IMG/VR virus record: IMGVR_UViG_3300035661_000073 | Coordinates: 1 to 57,883 of that record | Direction: 5' to 3' (one strand) | Length of the DNA: 57,883 nt | Source of the DNA: a virus | Taxonomy: Duplodnaviria; Caudoviricetes | Shown here: positions 12,538-30,948 of the stretch, piece by piece | Layout: the number at the start of each line of letters is the position of its first letter | How positions within the stretch are numbered: the stretch's first letter is position 1 | Program-made: the position numbers and the translations under genes | Notes under the pieces: generated by a model | Told to the model about the DNA's origin: nothing | Seen by the model: only the letters and a program-made list of their open reading frames with translations | The model's database searches: none

Positions 12538-12810
12538 TCACTGCTTCATTTCCAAGATCTCCCCAGGGATGGACAGCAGCGTGTAGAGCACCTGGGCGGT
12601 GCCCTGGATGCGCTGGCCGTCCCGGGCGATGTCGCACTCGCGCAGTTCTTCCATGGTTTCCAGGTACATGTGCTCCAGCAGCCGGTGGAAGGCCGGCGCG
12701 TCCCGGAACATCACGGCCGCTTCGCCGGGGTCCAGGCCGTACTTGCTGATGAAGTCCTCCACCAGGGCTTGCCGGGTGGCTTGGGCCATGTCTTCGGGAG
12801 CCGGGGCCAT
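12538..12810 (-). CDS. Small hypothetical protein between portal and scaffold (90 aa)
   Basis: MAPAPEDMAQATRQ...; start overlaps the portal stop; helical '..RIQG' pattern typical of this syntenic position. Confidence 0.65.
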   Translation of the reverse strand: MAPAPEDMAQATRQALVEDFISKYGLDPGEAAVMFRDAPAFHRLLEHMYLETMEELRECDIARDGQRIQGTAQVLYTLLSIPGEILEMKQ

Positions 12811-15050
12811 CACATGCCTCCCATGGGTGGCGGCGGGGCGCCTGGCTGGGGTTGCTGGGCCTTGGCGTCCGGGGACACCTCGCCGGGATTGGTGGCCGGG
12901 GCCGGGGCTTCCAGCACCGCCGTCTCCTGGGCATCCGCCACGCCCATGGCCTGATACTGCTGGGCCAGCATCTTGGCCCAGATGGCGAACGAGACGGCCA
13001 TCTTGTCGTCCCATTCCCCGAACCGCTTGGCCACCTTCTCGGTGACCGGGATGAGGAAGGGCGGCGGGACCCCGTTCTTGGCGATGGCCATGCCCTGTTT
13101 GAACATCTCCAGGAGGGCGTCGTCCTTGGACGACTGGGCCTTGAACTTGGCCCCCGGCGACTGGCCGGCTTCCTCCATCACTTCCTTCTTCTTGGCTTCC
13201 AGGGCCATCTTCTCGGTGTGTTGCTGGGCCGTCAGGACCGCCTTCTCCGACTCGATGCCCATGCCTTCCGAAATGATCTCCAGGAACCCGATCTCGTCCA
13301 TCCATCCGGGCAGGCCGAACTGGTGGATGTCCCTGAAGAAATCCTTGGCCTTGCGCCCGACGATCTCCCGGCGCAGGGCGCCGCGCACTCCGTGGACCTG
13401 GAGATCGGCTTCGACCTGGAACTTTTCGGGGTTCTCGTAGTACTCCAGGATCCATGCCTTGCAGTCGCGCAGGAACGGCTTCCAGAAGTAGCGGTCGAAG
13501 TTGCCGACCACGTCCTTGATAAACTCCTCCAAGCTGTCCCAAAGCTGGTTCATCATCGAATCGGTGCGAACCCCGGAGCCCATGTCCTGGCCGTTCGCCA
13601 TCTCCAGGAACCCGGTGCAAATCGGGACCATGCTCTCGAAGGTCTTGAAGGTCGCCAGGAGTTGGTCCAGGTTGCTCGGCACGGTGAAGAAGTCCACAGG
13701 CTTGTGGTTGGCGGTGTCGTCCTTGCGCCCCTTGCGCCGATAGATCCAGGTCTTGCGCCCCTGGATGGTGAGATCCTTGTTCTCCACCATGCCGGCGTCG
13801 ATGGCCACCTGGAAGCCGCTGGTGTCGGTCAGGGCGTCATCGATGCTGCGGGTGATGTTGGTCAGCATCTCGACACATTCCAGCGCCGACTCGCCGGCCC
13901 CCACCCCGAAGATCGAGCACGGGTCGCGGCGGAACGGGATGAAGTAGACCGGGATCTTGGTCGGCTGGAAGGTGCGCTTGGCCACCTTGAGCACCCGCTT
14001 GTCGCAGAACCAGATCTCCCAGATCTGGTCGGTCAGGGCCTTCTTCTCGTCGTCATCGAGCCCCTTCAGGTCATCGTTGTCCGGGAACTTCTGGCCCAGG
14101 GTCTCCAGCGCGTCTGCGGTCAGGACTCCAATCCGCATCCACACACAGTAGCCAGACATGGCTCCACCGCTGACGTTGGTGGGCTGGGGAACCAACTCCC
14201 AACGCTTGAGGTTCTGGGCCCAGTTCCCGTGCTCACCCAAATCCTCCAGCAGTCCGGCCAGTTCGGACTTGATGAAGGACGGGTCCTCTTGGAGCGCCCG
14301 GATCTGGTGCCGGGAGAAGATGTTGTGGAAGTGGACGTATTCGAGGGACTGGGGTTTCTTGGCGTTCGGGTCCGGGTAGACCCGCTTGGGGTCGTAGATT
14401 TCCCACATCGGCTTGCGGTCATCGGCGGACTCCACGGTCTCGTTGCCGTCCTGCCAGCGCAGGCGGGGCTGGGAGATGCGGATGGGGCCGTAGGCCACCG
14501 CGCAACCCAGGTTCGACATGTACTCGCACATGTCGTCCAGGTTGTTTTCGTTGTCCATGGCCTCCTGGATGTCCTCGATCTCCTCCTTGAGGGCCGCCAC
14601 CTTGGCCTTCTCCTCCTCGGAGGATTCCCCGCGCTTGTGCCGGGGGGAGGGCTGGATATCCCAGGGCCGCCCGTGGATTGGGCAGACGTGCTTGAACAGT
14701 TTGGCCTTGCCGATCTGGGTGATGCGCGGCAGGCGCCGGTAGAAGAAGGTGCTTTCGGTGTAGCCGGCCGGGGGCGGGTTCACATCCTTGCCGGCCAGGT
14801 ACTTCTCCACCTTGATCCAGGCTTTTTCCTTCTCGCGCCGGCCCCAGTCGGCCAGGTCGATCTCGGCGTTGAACTGGCCGATCAGACGCTTGACCGCGTC
14901 CACCTCGGGGGCATCCTGTTGAGGTTCCTCGCCTATCGACGGGTCTTCCGGGGGCTTGCTGTTTGGTCCGTAGAACGGCGCCGTGAATTCTCCCAACCCC
15001 GGTGCGATCACCGGCAATCGGGCGGGCGCCATCGAATTCAGACCCGGCAT
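12810..15050 (-). CDS. Portal protein
   Basis: About 746 aa directly after terL; 'DPKRVYPDP', 'IPFRRDPCSIFGVG', Pro/Gln-rich tail; GGAG RBS. Confidence 0.85.
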   Translation of the reverse strand: MPGLNSMAPARLPVIAPGLGEFTAPFYGPNSKPPEDPSIGEEPQQDAPEVDAVKRLIGQFNAEIDLADWGRREKEKAWIKVEKYLAGKDVNPPPAGYTESTFFYRRLPRITQIGKAKLFKHVCPIHGRPWDIQPSPRHKRGESSEEEKAKVAALKEEIEDIQEAMDNENNLDDMCEYMSNLGCAVAYGPIRISQPRLRWQDGNETVESADDRKPMWEIYDPKRVYPDPNAKKPQSLEYVHFHNIFSRHQIRALQEDPSFIKSELAGLLEDLGEHGNWAQNLKRWELVPQPTNVSGGAMSGYCVWMRIGVLTADALETLGQKFPDNDDLKGLDDDEKKALTDQIWEIWFCDKRVLKVAKRTFQPTKIPVYFIPFRRDPCSIFGVGAGESALECVEMLTNITRSIDDALTDTSGFQVAIDAGMVENKDLTIQGRKTWIYRRKGRKDDTANHKPVDFFTVPSNLDQLLATFKTFESMVPICTGFLEMANGQDMGSGVRTDSMMNQLWDSLEEFIKDVVGNFDRYFWKPFLRDCKAWILEYYENPEKFQVEADLQVHGVRGALRREIVGRKAKDFFRDIHQFGLPGWMDEIGFLEIISEGMGIESEKAVLTAQQHTEKMALEAKKKEVMEEAGQSPGAKFKAQSSKDDALLEMFKQGMAIAKNGVPPPFLIPVTEKVAKRFGEWDDKMAVSFAIWAKMLAQQYQAMGVADAQETAVLEAPAPATNPGEVSPDAKAQQPQPGAPPPPMGGM

Positions 15051-15153
15051 CGCTTCTCCCTGGAGATGGGACGCTTGGCCCCTTGACACTTTCAGAGTGT
15101 GTACTTTTTAGTCATCGGTCAAATTTTTCTTCTGATCAAATAGGTTTACCCAA

Positions 15154-17712
15154 CTAGTCGGAATTGCGCCCGGCCCGGTACGGCACCCAGGGGTGTTCCT
15201 CCACCGGTTCCTGCCATTCCGTTTCCTGCCAGGGCGGCACGGCGTCCAGGCGGTGGGCGTAGTCGGCCAGGCCCATGGTCAGGTAGCGCAGGCTGGTGAT
15301 CACGTCGTAGCGCCGGATCGGGGTCTCACGCATGGGCCCGTCGCCGTCCTTGTTCCACTCGTAGCCGCTGTACTGGTCGTGCAGGGTTTTCAGGTTCTGG
15401 CTGATCAGCAGGCGCTGGGTCTGGAACCGGTGCCACATGGTGTCCATCCCGGTCGGGAAGGAGTTGTTGGCCTTGATGAATTTGCGCTTCTCCTCCTCGA
15501 TCTCGTCCCAGTTCGGGCCGTGGGCCAGGTCCCAGTACTTCTCCAGGATCTTGGTGCCGTCCGCCTGGGACGCCTGGTCCGAGGCCGGATCGATCATGAA
15601 CGACATCGATGGGCCCCACTTCTGGAGGTTCCGGTAGTGGTATTCATAGTCCTTCTCCGCCTGCTCGTACGAGGCGTAGACGTAGACCACGTCGGAGAGG
15701 GGATCCCAGGCGGCGGCGGTGGCGGCGGTCGGGTGGCGCCAGCCCACGTCCAGCCCACCCAGGTAGCGCCAGTGGGGACTGATGGCGATCTTGCGCGGGT
15801 CGTAGAGCACCGAGTCCAGCGGGAACGGGAAGATCAGGCCGGAGTTGCTGGTCTCCCGGCCCTCGGAACGGGCCGCCAGCATGGCCGGGTCGGACGCCCA
15901 CAGGGCCCGGTTCCGCGCCTTCACCTCTGGGTCCAGGTGCTTGGCGTCGTCGTAGCTCAGGTAGACGCGCAGGACATGGGGGCCGCCGGCATTGTCGCGG
16001 ATCCACTTCACCAGCGGGGTGATGCCGTGCTGCGGGCACAGGGCGTAGTAGATGAAGCCATTGTTGACCGAGATGCGGGCGATCAGCTCGTCCATGATCT
16101 CCTTCGGGCACTCCTCATCCACCCACACCCGGTCGCCAGTCCAGGAGGCCAGGGCCTGTTGGTCCATGCCGTGGGTCTTGAACGAGATGACGCTGGTGGT
16201 GTCGGACGGGACGTGCTTGACCCAGACAGTGTCGATGGCGCCGGCCACCGACTTCATGGACGGTTTGCCCATGATGTACTTGTGGTGGATCAGGGCCTCG
16301 CGCCCCGGCTTGTCGGTCCACCCCGGGCGGTTCTTGTCGGGCCCGAACAGTTTGCGCTGGGGGGCGTCACGCACGTTCTCGGTCGTGTCACCGACCACCC
16401 AGGCGTTGATGCCCCGCGAGGTTTTCGGGCCCTTGTACCAGTCCGGGTAGAGCCCGGTGGCGTCCCACGCCAGTTGCACAGCGGCGGCATGGCTCTTGCC
16501 CGAGTTGTGATTGAGCACCGTCCCAATGAAGTAGTTGTGGGTCCCCTCCACTTCAAAGTCCCACACCTGCCCCTTGCGGAGCCAATCAATGCGCCTTACG
16601 CTTTGGTTTGGAGCGTAATATGCCGAACAAGCACAAAGGTCGTCAATCTCGAGACTGGCCCGTGGACCAGATTCGCCGTTGGGTGGAGGTTGAAGGGTGG
16701 AATCTGCACCAGATTTCTCGAGAGATGGGGGTGCCCCTGTCCACCATGCAGAAGGTTCTGGTCCGGAATGGGATTCTCTTGAAGGGCAAGGGACGGCCCC
16801 CCCGAGACTGGCCAGTCGATCAGATCCGGCTGTGGGTGGAAGTTGATGGCTGGACGATGGATCAGGTTGCTCGAAAACTTGGCACCCACCACCAGACGGT
16901 GTCAAAGGTTTGTGCAAAACATGGGATTCGGACCCAACGGACAGGTCCTCGAGCAGGGGAAGGGCACCCGAAATGGGAAGGCGGCCGGATCCTGGACAAG
17001 CACGGCTACGTGCTGGTCTACCGGTTGAACCATCCGATGGCACGGAAGCGTGGGAAGATGCCCCCCATCTACGTCCCTGAGCATCGACTGGTGATGTCCG
17101 AGCACCTTGGGCGGATGCTTGATCCTCTCGAGGTTGTCCATCACAAGAACGGGGAGAAGCAGGATAATCGGCTCGAGAACCTCGAGCTTTACACATCCAA
17201 TGCTCTCCACCTTGAGGACGAACTGACGGGTCGCTGCCCAAAGTGGAGCGAAGCCGGGAAACAGGCGATCCGTCTTGGAGTAAAGCGGAGGTGGGCTGCC
17301 ACCCGGAAGGGGTCAGGATCCGGTGACCCCTCGAGCAAATGATCTGGGTTCCGTCATCGAAGGTAACCCGGTAGAGGTCCTCGAGGCATTTCTTGAACGG
17401 CCGATGAGCCCTCGAGATCACCACCTCATGGCCGTCCCATGACTCCACGAAGAAGTCACCGTCGATCTCGTCAACCCGCCTCGAACACTTGGCCACCGGG
17501 TCCCAGATCTCCTGCTCACCACCTACACATTGGTTCGCTCCGAAAATTCCCTTGATATGCTTGAAGGAATTGAAAAATTCCAACTGCGGTTCGTAGATCC
17601 CGTTCGGAAAGGCCATGTCGGTCAGGAAGGCCATCTCGGCTTCCTGCTGGATGCCGGCCTCCGCCAGTCGTAATCCGGTGACCAGCCCTTCCAAGCCGTC
17701 GTGTCTTGCCAT
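15154..17712 (-). CDS. terL: Terminase large subunit, intein-containing (about 510 aa after splicing)
   Basis: Walker A GANQ|SGKS split by the intein, Walker B 'VWVDEE', nuclease motifs 'GGLDVGWRHP' and 'YDVITSLRY'. Confidence 0.93.
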   Translation of the reverse strand: MARHDGLEGLVTGLRLAEAGIQQEAEMAFLTDMAFPNGIYEPQLEFFNSFKHIKGIFGANQCVGGEQEIWDPVAKCSRRVDEIDGDFFVESWDGHEVVISRAHRPFKKCLEDLYRVTFDDGTQIICSRGHRILTPSGWQPTSALLQDGSPVSRLRSTLGSDPSVRPQGGEHWMCKARGSRADYPASPRSCDGQPREDQASAQGARTSPVDAQGRRWGASSHASVPSDGSTGRPARSRACPGSGRLPISGALPLLEDLSVGSESHVLHKPLTPSGGGCQVFEQPDPSSSHQLPPTAGSDRLASLGGAVPCPSRESHSGPEPSAWWTGAPPSLEKSGADSTLQPPPNGESGPRASLEIDDLCACSAYYAPNQSVRRIDWLRKGQVWDFEVEGTHNYFIGTVLNHNSGKSHAAAVQLAWDATGLYPDWYKGPKTSRGINAWVVGDTTENVRDAPQRKLFGPDKNRPGWTDKPGREALIHHKYIMGKPSMKSVAGAIDTVWVKHVPSDTTSVISFKTHGMDQQALASWTGDRVWVDEECPKEIMDELIARISVNNGFIYYALCPQHGITPLVKWIRDNAGGPHVLRVYLSYDDAKHLDPEVKARNRALWASDPAMLAARSEGRETSNSGLIFPFPLDSVLYDPRKIAISPHWRYLGGLDVGWRHPTAATAAAWDPLSDVVYVYASYEQAEKDYEYHYRNLQKWGPSMSFMIDPASDQASQADGTKILEKYWDLAHGPNWDEIEEEKRKFIKANNSFPTGMDTMWHRFQTQRLLISQNLKTLHDQYSGYEWNKDGDGPMRETPIRRYDVITSLRYLTMGLADYAHRLDAVPPWQETEWQEPVEEHPWVPYRAGRNSD
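16574..16602 (+). promoter_or_regulatory. Candidate sigma70 promoter for the antisense HNH gene
   Basis: TTGCGG-N17-TACGCT, then GGAG (16610-16613) and ATG 16620. Confidence 0.45.
16620..17342 (+). CDS. HNH homing endonuclease with two N-terminal HTH-like repeats, encoded antisense inside the intein
   Basis: Two copies of 'RDWPVDQIRxWVEVxGW'; 'GEGHPKWEGGR...HGY...YVPEHRLVM...VVHHKNGEKQDNRLENLEL' (HNH_3 type); GGAG RBS. Confidence 0.92.
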   Translation: MPNKHKGRQSRDWPVDQIRRWVEVEGWNLHQISREMGVPLSTMQKVLVRNGILLKGKGRPPRDWPVDQIRLWVEVDGWTMDQVARKLGTHHQTVSKVCAKHGIRTQRTGPRAGEGHPKWEGGRILDKHGYVLVYRLNHPMARKRGKMPPIYVPEHRLVMSEHLGRMLDPLEVVHHKNGEKQDNRLENLELYTSNALHLEDELTGRCPKWSEAGKQAIRLGVKRRWAATRKGSGSGDPSSK

Positions 17713-17791
17713 GAAAACACCCCTGGGTTTGGGGGCATCCCCCGTCCCAAGGGTGTCTACTTTTTAGTCATCCGTCAATTTTTTGAGCCGA

Positions 17792-18223
17792 TCACCCTTC
17801 ACTTATTGCGATGTTGTCGCAAATAAAGGCGTGGTCGGGGTGGTCGATGGTGATGCCCCAGATGGGCTCCTCCATGATCTCGCCCATGTATTCCAGCAGG
17901 GCGAAGGCCGGAGCCCCCCTGGGAGTGCGGACCACCACCGGGCGCTGGTCCTGGGCCGCCCGGCGGGCCCGGATGAATTCCTGCTTGCCGTTCTCGCACA
18001 GGACACAGACCTTGTGGGCCAGGGTGCATTCCAGGATGCCGAAGTCGTGGCGGAACCGGTGGACCATGCGGATGCCGGCGTCGAAGGAGGTCAGCACATG
18101 GGCGGTGCGGAAGTCGTGATCGCGGAAGTCGTAGGCCAGCACCGGGTCGCCGGGATGCAGGTGGGGGATGGCGGTGCTTTCCCCGGACGGGTGCAGCACC
18201 TGGGCATCGCCGCGCAGACTCAT
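17792..18223 (-). CDS. Free-standing Hint (intein-like) domain protein
   Basis: 'SLRGDAQVLHPSG' (block A), 'LHPGDPVLAYD', 'LECTLAHKV' (TxxH block B), 'PIWGITID..HAFICDNIAIS' (block F/G without HN). Confidence 0.8.
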   Translation of the reverse strand: MSLRGDAQVLHPSGESTAIPHLHPGDPVLAYDFRDHDFRTAHVLTSFDAGIRMVHRFRHDFGILECTLAHKVCVLCENGKQEFIRARRAAQDQRPVVVRTPRGAPAFALLEYMGEIMEEPIWGITIDHPDHAFICDNIAISEG

Positions 18224-18477
18224 TCCTCGTCCTCGCTCATGGGCCGGTCGTTGTCCTTCCAGCAGGCCACCAGTTGTTCCTCGGAGTCACAGGCCATCAG
18301 GCGGTACATCCCCAGGGTTTCCATCGGGGTGGCATCGTCGGTACGTTTCTGCACCACATTCATGGTTCCTTCCTGGGTCATGGTCAGGATCAGCACCTGC
18401 CGGAACCGGTCCACGTTGGCGGCCAGGTCCATGGCATGGTTGATGATTTCCCCGCGTTGTTCGTCGGTCCACTTCAT
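18220..18477 (-). CDS. Hypothetical protein
   Basis: GGAG RBS; ATGA coupling to the Hint gene. Confidence 0.65.
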   Translation of the reverse strand: MKWTDEQRGEIINHAMDLAANVDRFRQVLILTMTQEGTMNVVQKRTDDATPMETLGMYRLMACDSEEQLVACWKDNDRPMSEDEE

Positions 18478-18625
18478 GGTCGCTCCAGTGAAGGTTCAGT
18501 CTCGGGGAGGGCCCGGCTTGCGCCTGGTAACCCTCCCCAAAGCCGTGGTTTCGTATCCACGGCACGATCCCCGCTTCCGGCCGGGTCATGGCCAGTCCGC
18601 GCCGGACGACGGGCAGGGGATGGGA

Positions 18626-19292: not shown

Positions 19293-20060
19293 CTAGAACC
19301 TCAAGTCCGAATTCCAGTCATCGCTGGGGTTGGCATCGCCCTGCATCCCCAGGGTGGGGATGTCGTCGGTGGGCATCTCCACCTCCGCATCCACCACCGC
19401 CACCCCCTGGGCCGGAAGCAGGATCTTGATGCCGGTCTTCTCCTCGATCAGTGCCTGGTGGACCGTCAGCACCGACTGGAGCCGGGACCACACCTCCGGC
19501 CCGGTCAGGTCGTCGTGGTGGGTCACATCCACGGTCTGCTTCTTGCCGTACTTCTTGGCGTACATGGACTCGGCCATGCGGATCCGCAGGTCGGCCCGGG
19601 TCTTCTGGTGGAAGGTCTGCTTCCCGGACGGGTCCGGCTCGTCCACGATCTCAAGCGCCTGTTCCGCCAGGATGATGGCCCGCATCTTCTCGGCGGTCTC
19701 CATCAGGTCGGCAAAGGTCTTGTAGTCCGAGATCCAGTTCATGACCGTGCGGGCCTTGGGCATCCCGGGCACGGCCAGCAGGGCCGGGATGGAGTAGCCG
19801 GACGCCACCATGTCCAGCATCAGTTCCATCACGTCGGCCCGGGAAAGCTGCTTGCGGTTGACGATCCAGTAGTCCTGGGTCTCGGTGCGCTGGAGGGCTT
19901 CCAGGGTGATGGCCGCCCGCAGGTCGCCCTGGCCGATGCAGGGGTTGGAGGCGAAGTAGTGGCCCATGGCGTCCATGAGGGTCAGGGGCATCCGGCCCAC
20001 CACCGGCACGGTGTCCGGCGGGGCGGTGGGGTCCGGGGTGGCTGGGGGGCGTCCGCGCAT
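19293..20060 (-). CDS. terS: Terminase small subunit (Sf6-like)
   Basis: 'MVASGYSIPALL..PGMPKARTVMNWI...AEQALEIVD...RIRMAESMYAKKYG' matches the Sf6 gp1-type pattern; ATG 20060 overlaps the upstream stop. Confidence 0.8.
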   Translation of the reverse strand: MRGRPPATPDPTAPPDTVPVVGRMPLTLMDAMGHYFASNPCIGQGDLRAAITLEALQRTETQDYWIVNRKQLSRADVMELMLDMVASGYSIPALLAVPGMPKARTVMNWISDYKTFADLMETAEKMRAIILAEQALEIVDEPDPSGKQTFHQKTRADLRIRMAESMYAKKYGKKQTVDVTHHDDLTGPEVWSRLQSVLTVHQALIEEKTGIKILLPAQGVAVVDAEVEMPTDDIPTLGMQGDANPSDDWNSDLRF

Positions 20061-20401
20061 CACGACACCAGGGGCTGGTCCGGGGCGGGCGGCGGGCCGG
20101 CCTGGGCATGGGGCGGCCCCCCGAGCAGTTCCCGGATCGGGTCCAGGGCGGCCATGATGTCCACCTTGGCGACCCGGGCGCCGATAGTGGTCCGCATCAG
20201 TGGGGCCAGGCGCAGCATCAGGGTGGCCTTGATCTGCTGGTTCTCGATCAAGGTCAGGGGCAGCAGGTGGTTGATCACCTTGGCGTGGGGGTTGCCGATG
20301 GCGTCCATGTCCTTGACCCACTTGAGCGCATCGTGGATCTGGAGGTTGCCGACCGGAGGTCCCGGGGCCGGGTTCAGGGGGGCGATGTTATCGGGTGCCA
20401 T
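20060..20401 (-). CDS. Hypothetical protein
   Basis: GAGG RBS before ATG 20401; coupled to terS. Confidence 0.6.
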   Translation of the reverse strand: MAPDNIAPLNPAPGPPVGNLQIHDALKWVKDMDAIGNPHAKVINHLLPLTLIENQQIKATLMLRLAPLMRTTIGARVAKVDIMAALDPIRELLGGPPHAQAGPPPAPDQPLVS

Positions 20402-30459: not shown

Positions 30460-30948
30460 ATGGTGGACCTTATGGAAATTCTCGGAGACGGATTCTGGCC
30501 AAAAGTGAACAAGACCGCGCCTGGCGGCTGCTGGTTGTGGGTGGCTGGCAAGACCAAGTTGGGCTACGGCGCCTACAGCATCGGCGGGTTTAAAGCTGGG
30601 ATGTCCTACGCCCATCGACTGGCGTACGAATCTCTGGTCGGTCCCATCCCCACGGGGAAGGGGATCGACCACGTCTGCTACAGCCGCGCTTGCGTCAACC
30701 CCGCCCACATGCGCTTGGCGGATCGGGCCGAAAACATGCGGAACCGCAAGAAGCCGTCAAACAACACCTCCGGGTTTAAAGGGGTGTCCTGGGATGACGA
30801 GCATCAGAAGTGGCACGCCTGCATCGGCTATGAGGGACGCAAGATCAACTTGGGGTTTTTCACCTCCAAGGAAGATGCCTACGAGAAGTACTGCTGGGCC
30901 GCCAGGATCTTGCATGGCGACTTCGCCAACTTTGGCGAGGCGGTATGA
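30460..30948 (+). CDS. HNH-AP2 homing endonuclease
   Basis: 'FWPKVNK..GCWLW..GYG..AHRLAY..IDHVC..CVNPAH..N' plus AP2 'NNTSGFKGVSW..KW.A.I..LGFF'. Confidence 0.9.
   Translation: MVDLMEILGDGFWPKVNKTAPGGCWLWVAGKTKLGYGAYSIGGFKAGMSYAHRLAYESLVGPIPTGKGIDHVCYSRACVNPAHMRLADRAENMRNRKKPSNNTSGFKGVSWDDEHQKWHACIGYEGRKINLGFFTSKEDAYEKYCWAARILHGDFANFGEAV

Follow-up and report, generated by a model that had tools for sequence, protein, structure and literature searches.

The terminase large subunit gene (terL) of a tailed virus very probably carries a class-1 intein in its P-loop codons whose homing endonuclease has a gene of its own on the other strand, lodged between the two HINT lobes and encoding helix-turn-helix (HTH) modules followed by an HNH_3 domain; we base this on sequence comparison and structure modelling. 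The virus (Caudoviricetes) is IMG/VR record IMGVR_UViG_3300035661_000073, and the window analysed here is all of it, a complete virus record of 57,883 bp with direct terminal repeats and 64.6% GC. Related elements, of which the window's is one, are widespread: they occur in at least 12 divergent TerL groups and in an SNF2 helicase, all with the same frame offset between nuclease and host gene.

The terL precursor is a single open reading frame (ORF) on the minus strand (15154..17712; 852 aa plus stop). Alignment with 15 TerL relatives, some of them intein-free, shows that residues 62-403 are inserted into the Walker A motif, precisely at the point where GANQ meets SGKS. The N-extein (17530..17712, minus strand; 61 aa, 38-57% identical to the N-exteins of relatives) ends in FGANQ, the first half of the motif, and the C-extein (15154..16503, minus strand; 449 aa plus stop, 49-77% identical to 39 metagenomic TerL proteins) begins with SGKSH, the second half. 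Pfam Terminase_6N matches the precursor at residues 404-630 (E 2.5e-08; 34.3 bits, cut-off 22) and nowhere before 404. Since this is the sole Terminase_6N match of the complete 57.9-kb record, we infer that the protein is spliced.

The intein (16504..17529, minus strand; 342 aa) has the junctions FGANQ/CVGGEQEI and VLNHN/SGKSH, where the slash marks the splice point. Its nucleophile Cys1 directly follows the GANQ of the N-extein, block B reads SRGH (SRGHRILT) with His69 and has Ser at the Thr position, and the C terminus is His341-Asn342 followed by Ser+1. An alignment of 31 family members shows no variation at Cys1, His69, Asp324 and Asn342, and family-wide the residue before the last is either His or Lys. 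Blocks A and B lie in the HINT N-lobe (17275..17529, minus strand; intein residues 1-85) and blocks F and G in the C-lobe (16504..16608, minus strand; residues 308-342, ending VLNHN). The linker between them (16627..17259, minus strand; residues 91-301) is the translated antisense of the nuclease gene, and 49% of it is Ser, Pro, Gly or Arg; no Pfam family matches the middle of the 342-aa intein. The original prediction, which was made from the letters of the window, had placed a 342-aa intein at 16504-17529 across the Walker A motif and called its middle Ser/Pro/Gly/Arg-rich with no recognisable domain. All of its coordinates hold, with terL on the minus strand.

The predicted homing-endonuclease gene runs on the plus strand, antisense to the intein, from an ATG at 16620 to 17342 (240 aa plus stop); from an alternative TTG start the ORF spans 16608..17342 and has 244 aa. 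It covers intein residues 63-304. Its product matches HNH_3 (E 1.5e-10; 40.9 bits, cut-off 24.8; 44.2 bits in a six-frame search), HTH_23 (28.6 bits, cut-off 24.6) and PHROG families of HNH endonucleases (best 5e-25). The catalytic core (17079..17213, plus strand; residues 154-198, with HNH_3 at 155-194) has the pattern EH...VVHHKNG...N...N...H, and E154, H155, H174, H175, N183, N187, N194 and H197 are invariant in 24 lineages. Upstream of the core a tandem 153-nt (51-codon) duplication (16629..16874, plus strand), visible as a direct repeat of 72% identity (16629-16721 and 16782-16874), underlies two HTH modules. Because the length of the duplication is a multiple of three, both reading frames survive it, and the extra HTH accounts for the 342 residues of the window's intein where 280-323 is usual. 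An intact 240-aa antisense HNH gene with tandem HTH-like repeats was thus correctly foreseen, and its overlap with block B, put at about 25 codons, comes to ~27. A second HNH_3 gene, with an AP2-like domain (30460..30948, plus strand; 162 aa), is an ordinary free-standing gene among plus-strand genes; it was considered as the source of the intein's HNH and rejected, being unrelated beyond the domain.

In an AlphaFold2 model of the intein, built with a 31-sequence alignment, the N- and C-lobes together form a HINT fold. Predicted local confidence (pLDDT) is 93-98 for residues 1-80, 71 for 81-90 and 93-97 for 311-342, and the N-lobe is mostly beta strands. Linker residues 91-301 are modelled without secondary structure at pLDDT 32-50. 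Trimmed of its low-confidence stretch, the model aligns with the NpuDnaB intein at a VIA-align Z of 17.8 (root-mean-square deviation 3.0 over 130 residues), and 30 solved intein or HINT chains match it at Z of 8 or more. The junctions, which are canonical for class 1, and the modelled HINT fold together support the assignment of the element as an intein. The AlphaFold2 model of the HNH protein (mean pLDDT 84) has two three-helix bundles, which together with the HTH_23 match point to a DNA-binding module, followed by a beta-beta-alpha core.

The relative register of the two genes is informative. Codon position 1 of the HNH gene lies opposite codon position 1 of terL, which is not the codon-aligned shadow frame, and therefore any NTT, NTC or NCT codon followed by A in the HNH gene would put a stop in terL. 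The window's HNH has 37 such at-risk dipeptides and none is realised: across the HNH gene 0 stops fall in the terL frame, and 2 and 8 in the other two antisense frames. Among synonymous-codon shuffles of the HNH gene, 3 of 20000 reach 0 stops and the commonest outcome is 6. The original prediction had stated the offset and the lack of terL stops in 240 codons, had taken them as a sign of selection on both strands, and had proposed a codon-shuffle test and a comparison of substitutions in the two frames. Both have now been run, the latter as counts (below), and each bears it out.

A GC-rich genome can produce long antisense ORFs by chance, and this one does, e.g. 744 aa opposite the portal gene. 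The long chance ORFs elsewhere in the genome, however, use the codon-aligned frame, which is stop-free because GC content at third codon positions (GC3) is ~0.9, and the HNH gene does not. An assembly artefact would be a related explanation, and local misassembly had been named beforehand as something that would overturn the prediction. A Logan contig of run X1 (56,785 nt, other assembler) is identical over 15100-18500; the run is possibly the source sample, so this is an assembly check only. Given also the strong Pfam and PHROG matches, the shuffle result and the recurrence of the layout at GC 0.42-0.63, chance and artefact are both effectively refuted.

The original prediction had called for a search for further cases, and these turned out to be numerous. 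An alignment-based scan of viral contigs gave an intein-side set of 61 loci, in which the window's HNH was placed by tblastn. An HNH relative is present in 52 of the 61 (39-62% identity to that of the window); it is always opposite the terL strand, inside an ORF that is open across it (593-1064 aa, some cut by contig ends), and the frame offset is common to all 52. Including the window, 53 of 53 inteins parse as C...(H/K)N/(S or T) at the P-loop. Of the nine loci with no HNH match, seven have mini-inteins (125-142 aa) and two are on contigs broken off within the intein. On the nuclease side, 429 HNH relatives were found in viral contigs and the best 80 were analysed. All 80 are antisense and lie within a long open frame, again at that offset; both junction patterns are matched in 62, the other 18 having variant motifs or contig cuts. 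Pooled, the two sets comprise 131 loci and 88 distinct HNH peptides, which form 50 clusters that are less than 90% identical to one another. Of 11 relatives in genome contigs of bacteria or archaea, 8 have the antisense layout, and the three others, more distant or partly matched, look free-standing. A search with the intein part of TerL returned proteins that align over all 342 residues including the linker (P0061-P0064), and short versions too. Such alignment-based scans were needed: single-protein pattern scans of viral contigs gave 0 relatives for the HNH and 1 for the C-extein. Searches of the phage collection for distant DNA or protein relatives gave no match.

Hosts of the family include TerL proteins of the Terminase_6N and Terminase_3 types and an SNF2-family helicase. 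The helicase insertions are in L219 (939-5402, minus strand) and L220, contigs of Acidobacteria metagenome-assembled genomes, in which the antisense-HNH intein occupies the P-loop of a protein with SNF2-rel_dom and Helicase_C domains; the element is therefore not confined to terminases. In three further loci (L146, L204 and L216) its insertion point seems to lie behind the GK of the P-loop (…NRIGK/C… or …NKIGK/C…) and not before SGK, which suggests site drift within the motif. A further intein may be present in L214 (486-3392, minus strand), whose 969-aa host ORF gives another weak Hint/Vint match at residues 759-832.

Might the intein be split or non-contiguous, or the intervening DNA be removed at the RNA level, so that read-through of the linker would be irrelevant? 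Free-standing nucleases between split-intein halves are known as 'fractured genes' (Dassa et al. 2009, as described in the accessible text of bioRxiv 10.1101/2025.01.02.630785). Against this, no stop interrupts the terL frame over the HNH in any of the 52 HNH-bearing intein-side loci or of the best 80 of 429 relatives, well beyond chance, a pattern to be expected only where translation has to pass through the region. A search of 15000-18600 against Rfam, which includes group I and II introns, gave no match at E <= 0.1, and a ribozyme-intron reading was dropped on that account. We regard either arrangement as scarcely credible.

Across the family, selection can be followed on each strand. The 52 HNH-bearing regions of at least 141 aa that were analysed (the window's and those of 51 loci) are all free of stops in the terL frame, versus 2.0-9.7 expected, and this is not an effect of high GC since the regions span GC 0.42-0.63. 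Pairwise nucleotide difference at HNH codon positions 1, 2 and 3 is 0.38, 0.33 and 0.64 (24 lineages below 90% identity). The most variable position, the third of the HNH frame, is thus position 2 in the codons of terL. In these lineages the stretch gives an amino-acid identity of 52.3% when read in the HNH frame versus 23.5% in the linker frame. Single-base codon changes in 84 close pairs were 999 synonymous and 322 non-synonymous in the HNH frame versus 209 and 1178 in the linker frame.

The open host frame has also left its mark on the nuclease itself. Phe followed by Ile, Met, Thr, Asn or Lys occurs 0 times in the HNHs versus 9.7 expected (0 of 2000 residue shuffles are as low), and Ile before any of these five residues is encoded by ATA in 19 of 19 cases, versus 51 of 204 Ile codons overall. 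One locus, L002, has 2 stops in its HNH and an open terL frame, the pattern expected if terL is essential and the nuclease dispensable. These results support selection on both strands, on amino acids in the HNH frame and for stop avoidance in the terL frame. The terL frame across the HNH gene is selected only to stay stop-free, and this has shaped the codon choice and even the dipeptide content of the HNH. The linker read from the sense strand has the look of filler whose sequence is unconstrained and which would be lost on splicing.

Intein and nuclease appear to move as a unit, and independently of their hosts. Identities of the HINT and HNH parts co-vary (r 0.66; 0 of 5000 Mantel permutations reach this value), so that both travel together. 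Among the 24 lineages, the host C-exteins can often barely be aligned and form 12 clusters that share less than 45% identity, whereas the HNHs are 44-68% identical. The window's intein groups with those of L003, L005 and L006 (support 95/90), whose exteins are only 27-29% identical to its own. The disagreement of extein and intein relationships implies that the element is mobile. The window's own TerL relatives (49-77% identity) have a different, unrelated-looking mini-intein at the Walker A site or none, which argues for horizontal acquisition of the element found here. Base composition may hold a trace of this. GC is ~0.47-0.64 per 75 nt over ~16510..17870 versus ~0.66 in the flanks, and the lower-GC stretch covers the intein with its HNH gene, the N-extein, an 80-nt spacer and the last 11 codons of the gene upstream of terL. 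GC3 is 0.72 in the N-extein, 0.67 in the HNH gene, 0.80-0.85 in the HINT C-lobe and 0.93 in the C-extein. The stretch may be a co-conversion tract from a lower-GC donor; as a sign of recent arrival, GC makes a weak claim.

Some TerL relatives of the window hold other arrangements at this site. P0010 and P0036 (~1004-1008 aa) have two inteins three residues apart in one P-loop, a mini-intein before SGK and a LAGLIDADG-type intein after it. In P0001 the mini-intein appears after SGK, not before.

The elements also decay. On the HINT tree, mini-inteins turn up at various places between inteins that bear an HNH; well-supported branches force at least three changes, and this distribution fits repeated loss of the nuclease. 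An intein of 148 aa (L052) has a 43-residue HNH remnant. The window's copy might therefore be a silent passenger, built as described but fixed, with an HNH that is no longer expressed or active and an intein on its way to becoming a mini-intein. The decay in relatives (the 2 HNH stops of L002, the L052 remnant and the seven mini-inteins), the lack of a promoter-like site upstream of the HNH gene on the plus strand, and the unusual extra HTH duplication would all fit. The window's ORF, however, is intact over 240 codons, has all of the invariant catalytic residues, and is preceded by a putative Shine-Dalgarno-like GGAG (16610..16613, plus strand; read from the sequence, 6 nt ahead of the ATG); across the family, synonymous substitutions strongly predominate in the HNH frame, and the intein seems to have arrived by horizontal transfer. 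We consider a silent passenger unlikely.

Motifs of the GGAG or GGAGG type precede the chosen HNH start in 10 of 23 non-redundant family members. Six loci (L011, L018, L022, L026, L040 and L061) have TATAAT-like or TGnTAnnAT boxes directly before the HNH start and no Shine-Dalgarno motif. These boxes hint at dedicated promoters or short-leader messages in some lineages.

A different role for the nuclease can be imagined. HNH proteins are encoded beside terminase genes in some cos phages. The present HNH lies physically inside terL, and HNH genes commonly adjoin terminase genes (PMC3592412, abstract), so it might be a terminase accessory nuclease and not a homing enzyme. Yet it matches HNH_3 and has HTH modules, a type annotated as homing or free-standing phage endonucleases; it is absent from all 21 close TerL relatives (L063-L083) and from the seven mini-intein relatives; it occurs also in the intein of an SNF2 helicase; and the record ends in direct terminal repeats, not cos ends. 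An accessory role is thus highly unlikely.

What these observations point to is an intein with its own opposite-strand homing endonuclease, which would work as follows. The terL gene would be translated straight through as an 852-aa precursor, in which the N-lobe (residues 1-85) and C-lobe (308-342) would fold together while the ~210-residue antisense-derived linker loops out, disordered. Splicing, by Cys1, His69 of block B, His341-Asn342 and Ser+1, would then join GANQ to SGKS and restore the ATPase motif. The HNH would be made from its own message on the other strand, and would presumably nick or cut intein-free P-loop alleles during co-infection, with repair copying intein and HNH together (homing). 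The original prediction had described a dual-coding mobile element from which splicing discards the antisense peptide. Its separate antisense HNH, two-strand selection and filler-like linker stand; the linker would be discarded by splicing, and the nuclease may, as also proposed there, be expressed independently of terL and before it.

Several results weigh against this interpretation. Pfam Intein_splicing matches the window's intein over the C-terminal block only (positions 121-155 of 155), at 23.3-26.1 bits, below the curated cut-off of 35.8; in some relatives the score reaches 40-46 bits. The long insert splits the domain. With the score below the cut-off, the intein call rests on motifs, alignment and modelled fold. 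The best PDB match of the HNH model is 1u3e (I-HmuI), a weak one (Foldseek E 0.11, probability 0.99, template modelling scores 0.26/0.35); no Foldseek match to the PDB has E <= 0.001, and a profile search of PDB sequences with the HNH gave HTH repeat proteins only. Sampling on the nuclease side is limited to the best 80 of 429 relatives, and the 84 close pairs and near-identical loci are not independent, the de-replicated numbers being 24 lineages and 50 clusters. A consensus scan found no sigma-70-like promoter upstream of the window's HNH gene on the plus strand, where the consensus may not be that of the host; the only plus-strand promoter-like match lies inside the HNH gene (17140-17168). 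Finally, the sequencing runs holding this stretch are one DNA run, with no RNA run listed.

A bolder reading, to which we give rather less than even credence, is that the antisense layout is a stable, selected way of life and not a short-lived accident, and that the members of this clade of HTH-HNH nucleases exist practically nowhere but as antisense passengers within a single lineage of inteins. Viral contigs contain at least 429 relatives, and the position of the best 80, all of them antisense inside inteins, may speak for it. So may the moulding of the HNH sequences by the open host frame (no Phe before A-initial codons, ATA forced for Ile) and the apparent hopping of the element between P-loops of unrelated ATPases, namely several terminase families and the SNF2 helicase. 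If this were true, placement on the opposite strand would allow separate timing of the nuclease and the late terL product, and the HNH transcript might also act on terL expression.

The packaging module around terL lies on the minus strand and includes a small terminase (19293..20321, with an Sf6_terminase match), a zinc-ribbon ORF listed between it and an 85-aa ORF (18220..18477), and an SU10-type portal (12810..15089). Directly upstream of terL, outside the HNH intein, is a free-standing, splicing-dead HINT gene (17792..18223, minus strand; 143 aa), whose ATG overlaps the stop of the 85-aa ORF (ATGA). Its product is 29-49% identical to the terL-embedded mini-inteins of L063-L083 (58% over one truncated 33-residue match); it has the start Met and Ser in place of Cys1, and Glu-Gly-stop in place of the terminal Asn. 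The GC3 of the gene is 0.87, native-like, except for 0.42 in its last 11 codons.

An exhaustive profile-free search of metagenomes found other free-standing versions of 147-153 aa (P0188, P0191, P0207 and P0208), all four without Cys1 and two of them also without the terminal Asn. A metagenome scan and two viral scans for free-standing homologues returned only terL-embedded copies, and no other HNH-intein locus has a free-standing HINT ORF. In a tree with 31 embedded copies the free-standing HINTs are not one clade, well-supported branches forcing at least three changes; the window's gene pairs with P0188, next to P0001, which is the closest TerL relative. The longest contigs of another free-standing homologue, P0193, and of the intein-free TerL P0035 both measure 11,322 nt, a hint that the two are neighbours. 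One-step displacement of a resident mini-intein by the HNH intein was considered and not adopted, because free-standing HINT homologues arose at least three times and P0193 is perhaps beside an intein-free TerL. Judging from these sequences, this phage group could on at least three occasions have made a separate, splicing-dead HINT gene out of an older mini-intein, perhaps a form of domestication.

The family has consequences beyond this virus. Long-lived antisense overlapping genes are rare and usually contested; here is a well-replicated case (50 clusters) in which selection can be measured on each strand, and in which the constraint from the opposite strand leaves a footprint in the dipeptide and codon usage of the nuclease. 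Antisense-HNH inteins are common in environmental phages, and gene callers will annotate them as 'decayed' inteins. HINT lobes that, going by the model, tolerate a ~210-residue disordered insert, and HTH-HNH nucleases predicted to target P-loop codons, might be of practical use.

Nucleases antisense to inteins are not categorically new. According to the accessible text of a recent preprint (Gosselin, Arsenault & Gogarten, bioRxiv 10.1101/2025.01.02.630785), to which our comparison is limited, an antisense LAGLIDADG occurs in the Synechocystis DnaX intein (Gorbalenya 1998 and Gogarten 2002, cited there), and antisense LAGLIDADG and VSR-like nucleases occur in actinophage inteins, including those of TerL. 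Free-standing nuclease genes are proposed there to have invaded inteins, and antisense-nuclease inteins are predicted to be under-annotated. The premise of the original prediction that inteins home by an in-frame endonuclease was therefore overstated. HNH is listed in that text only as an in-frame type. We found no report of an antisense HNH in an intein in the literature, where the supplements of the preprint might list further types and subscription journals lay outside the search.

The element in the window shares with those published inteins an opposite-strand nuclease ORF between the splicing blocks, an uninterrupted extein-intein frame, a terminase host, an in-frame middle with no recognisable fold, and the proposed origin from a free-standing nuclease invading an intein; our data fit that view, in which the splicing domain comes first and the nuclease invades later. 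It differs in that its nuclease is an HNH_3 protein with HTH modules, where the antisense types of the preprint text are LAGLIDADG and VSR-like only, and in that 131 loci (50 clusters) are available here, in which the frame offset is a single conserved one and selection is measurable for either frame. HNH thus joins LAGLIDADG and VSR-like as an antisense type, and the published list was incomplete.

With inteins that have the nuclease in the intein protein, the element has in common the joining of HINT and a site-specific nuclease in one mobile unit, the homing cycle and the decay to mini-inteins; unlike them, its nuclease is predicted to be a separate polypeptide from a separate message, and the intein has no nuclease domain. 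It resembles the 'fractured genes' of Dassa et al. (2009, as cited in bioRxiv 10.1101/2025.01.02.630785, accessible text) in having a nuclease gene of the free-standing type lodged in an intein, but its host gene is unsplit, with a single 852-aa ORF running through where fractured genes have two flanking ORFs. I-HmuI (PDB 1u3e), from phage group I introns, likewise combines an HNH beta-beta-alpha-metal core with a helix-turn-helix DNA-binding part; the match to it is weak, the order of domains is reversed, HTH coming first here, and the carrier is an intein, not an intron. The kind of arrangement was already known; what is new is the HNH version, its abundance and wide spread, its single frame offset, and selection quantified on two strands.

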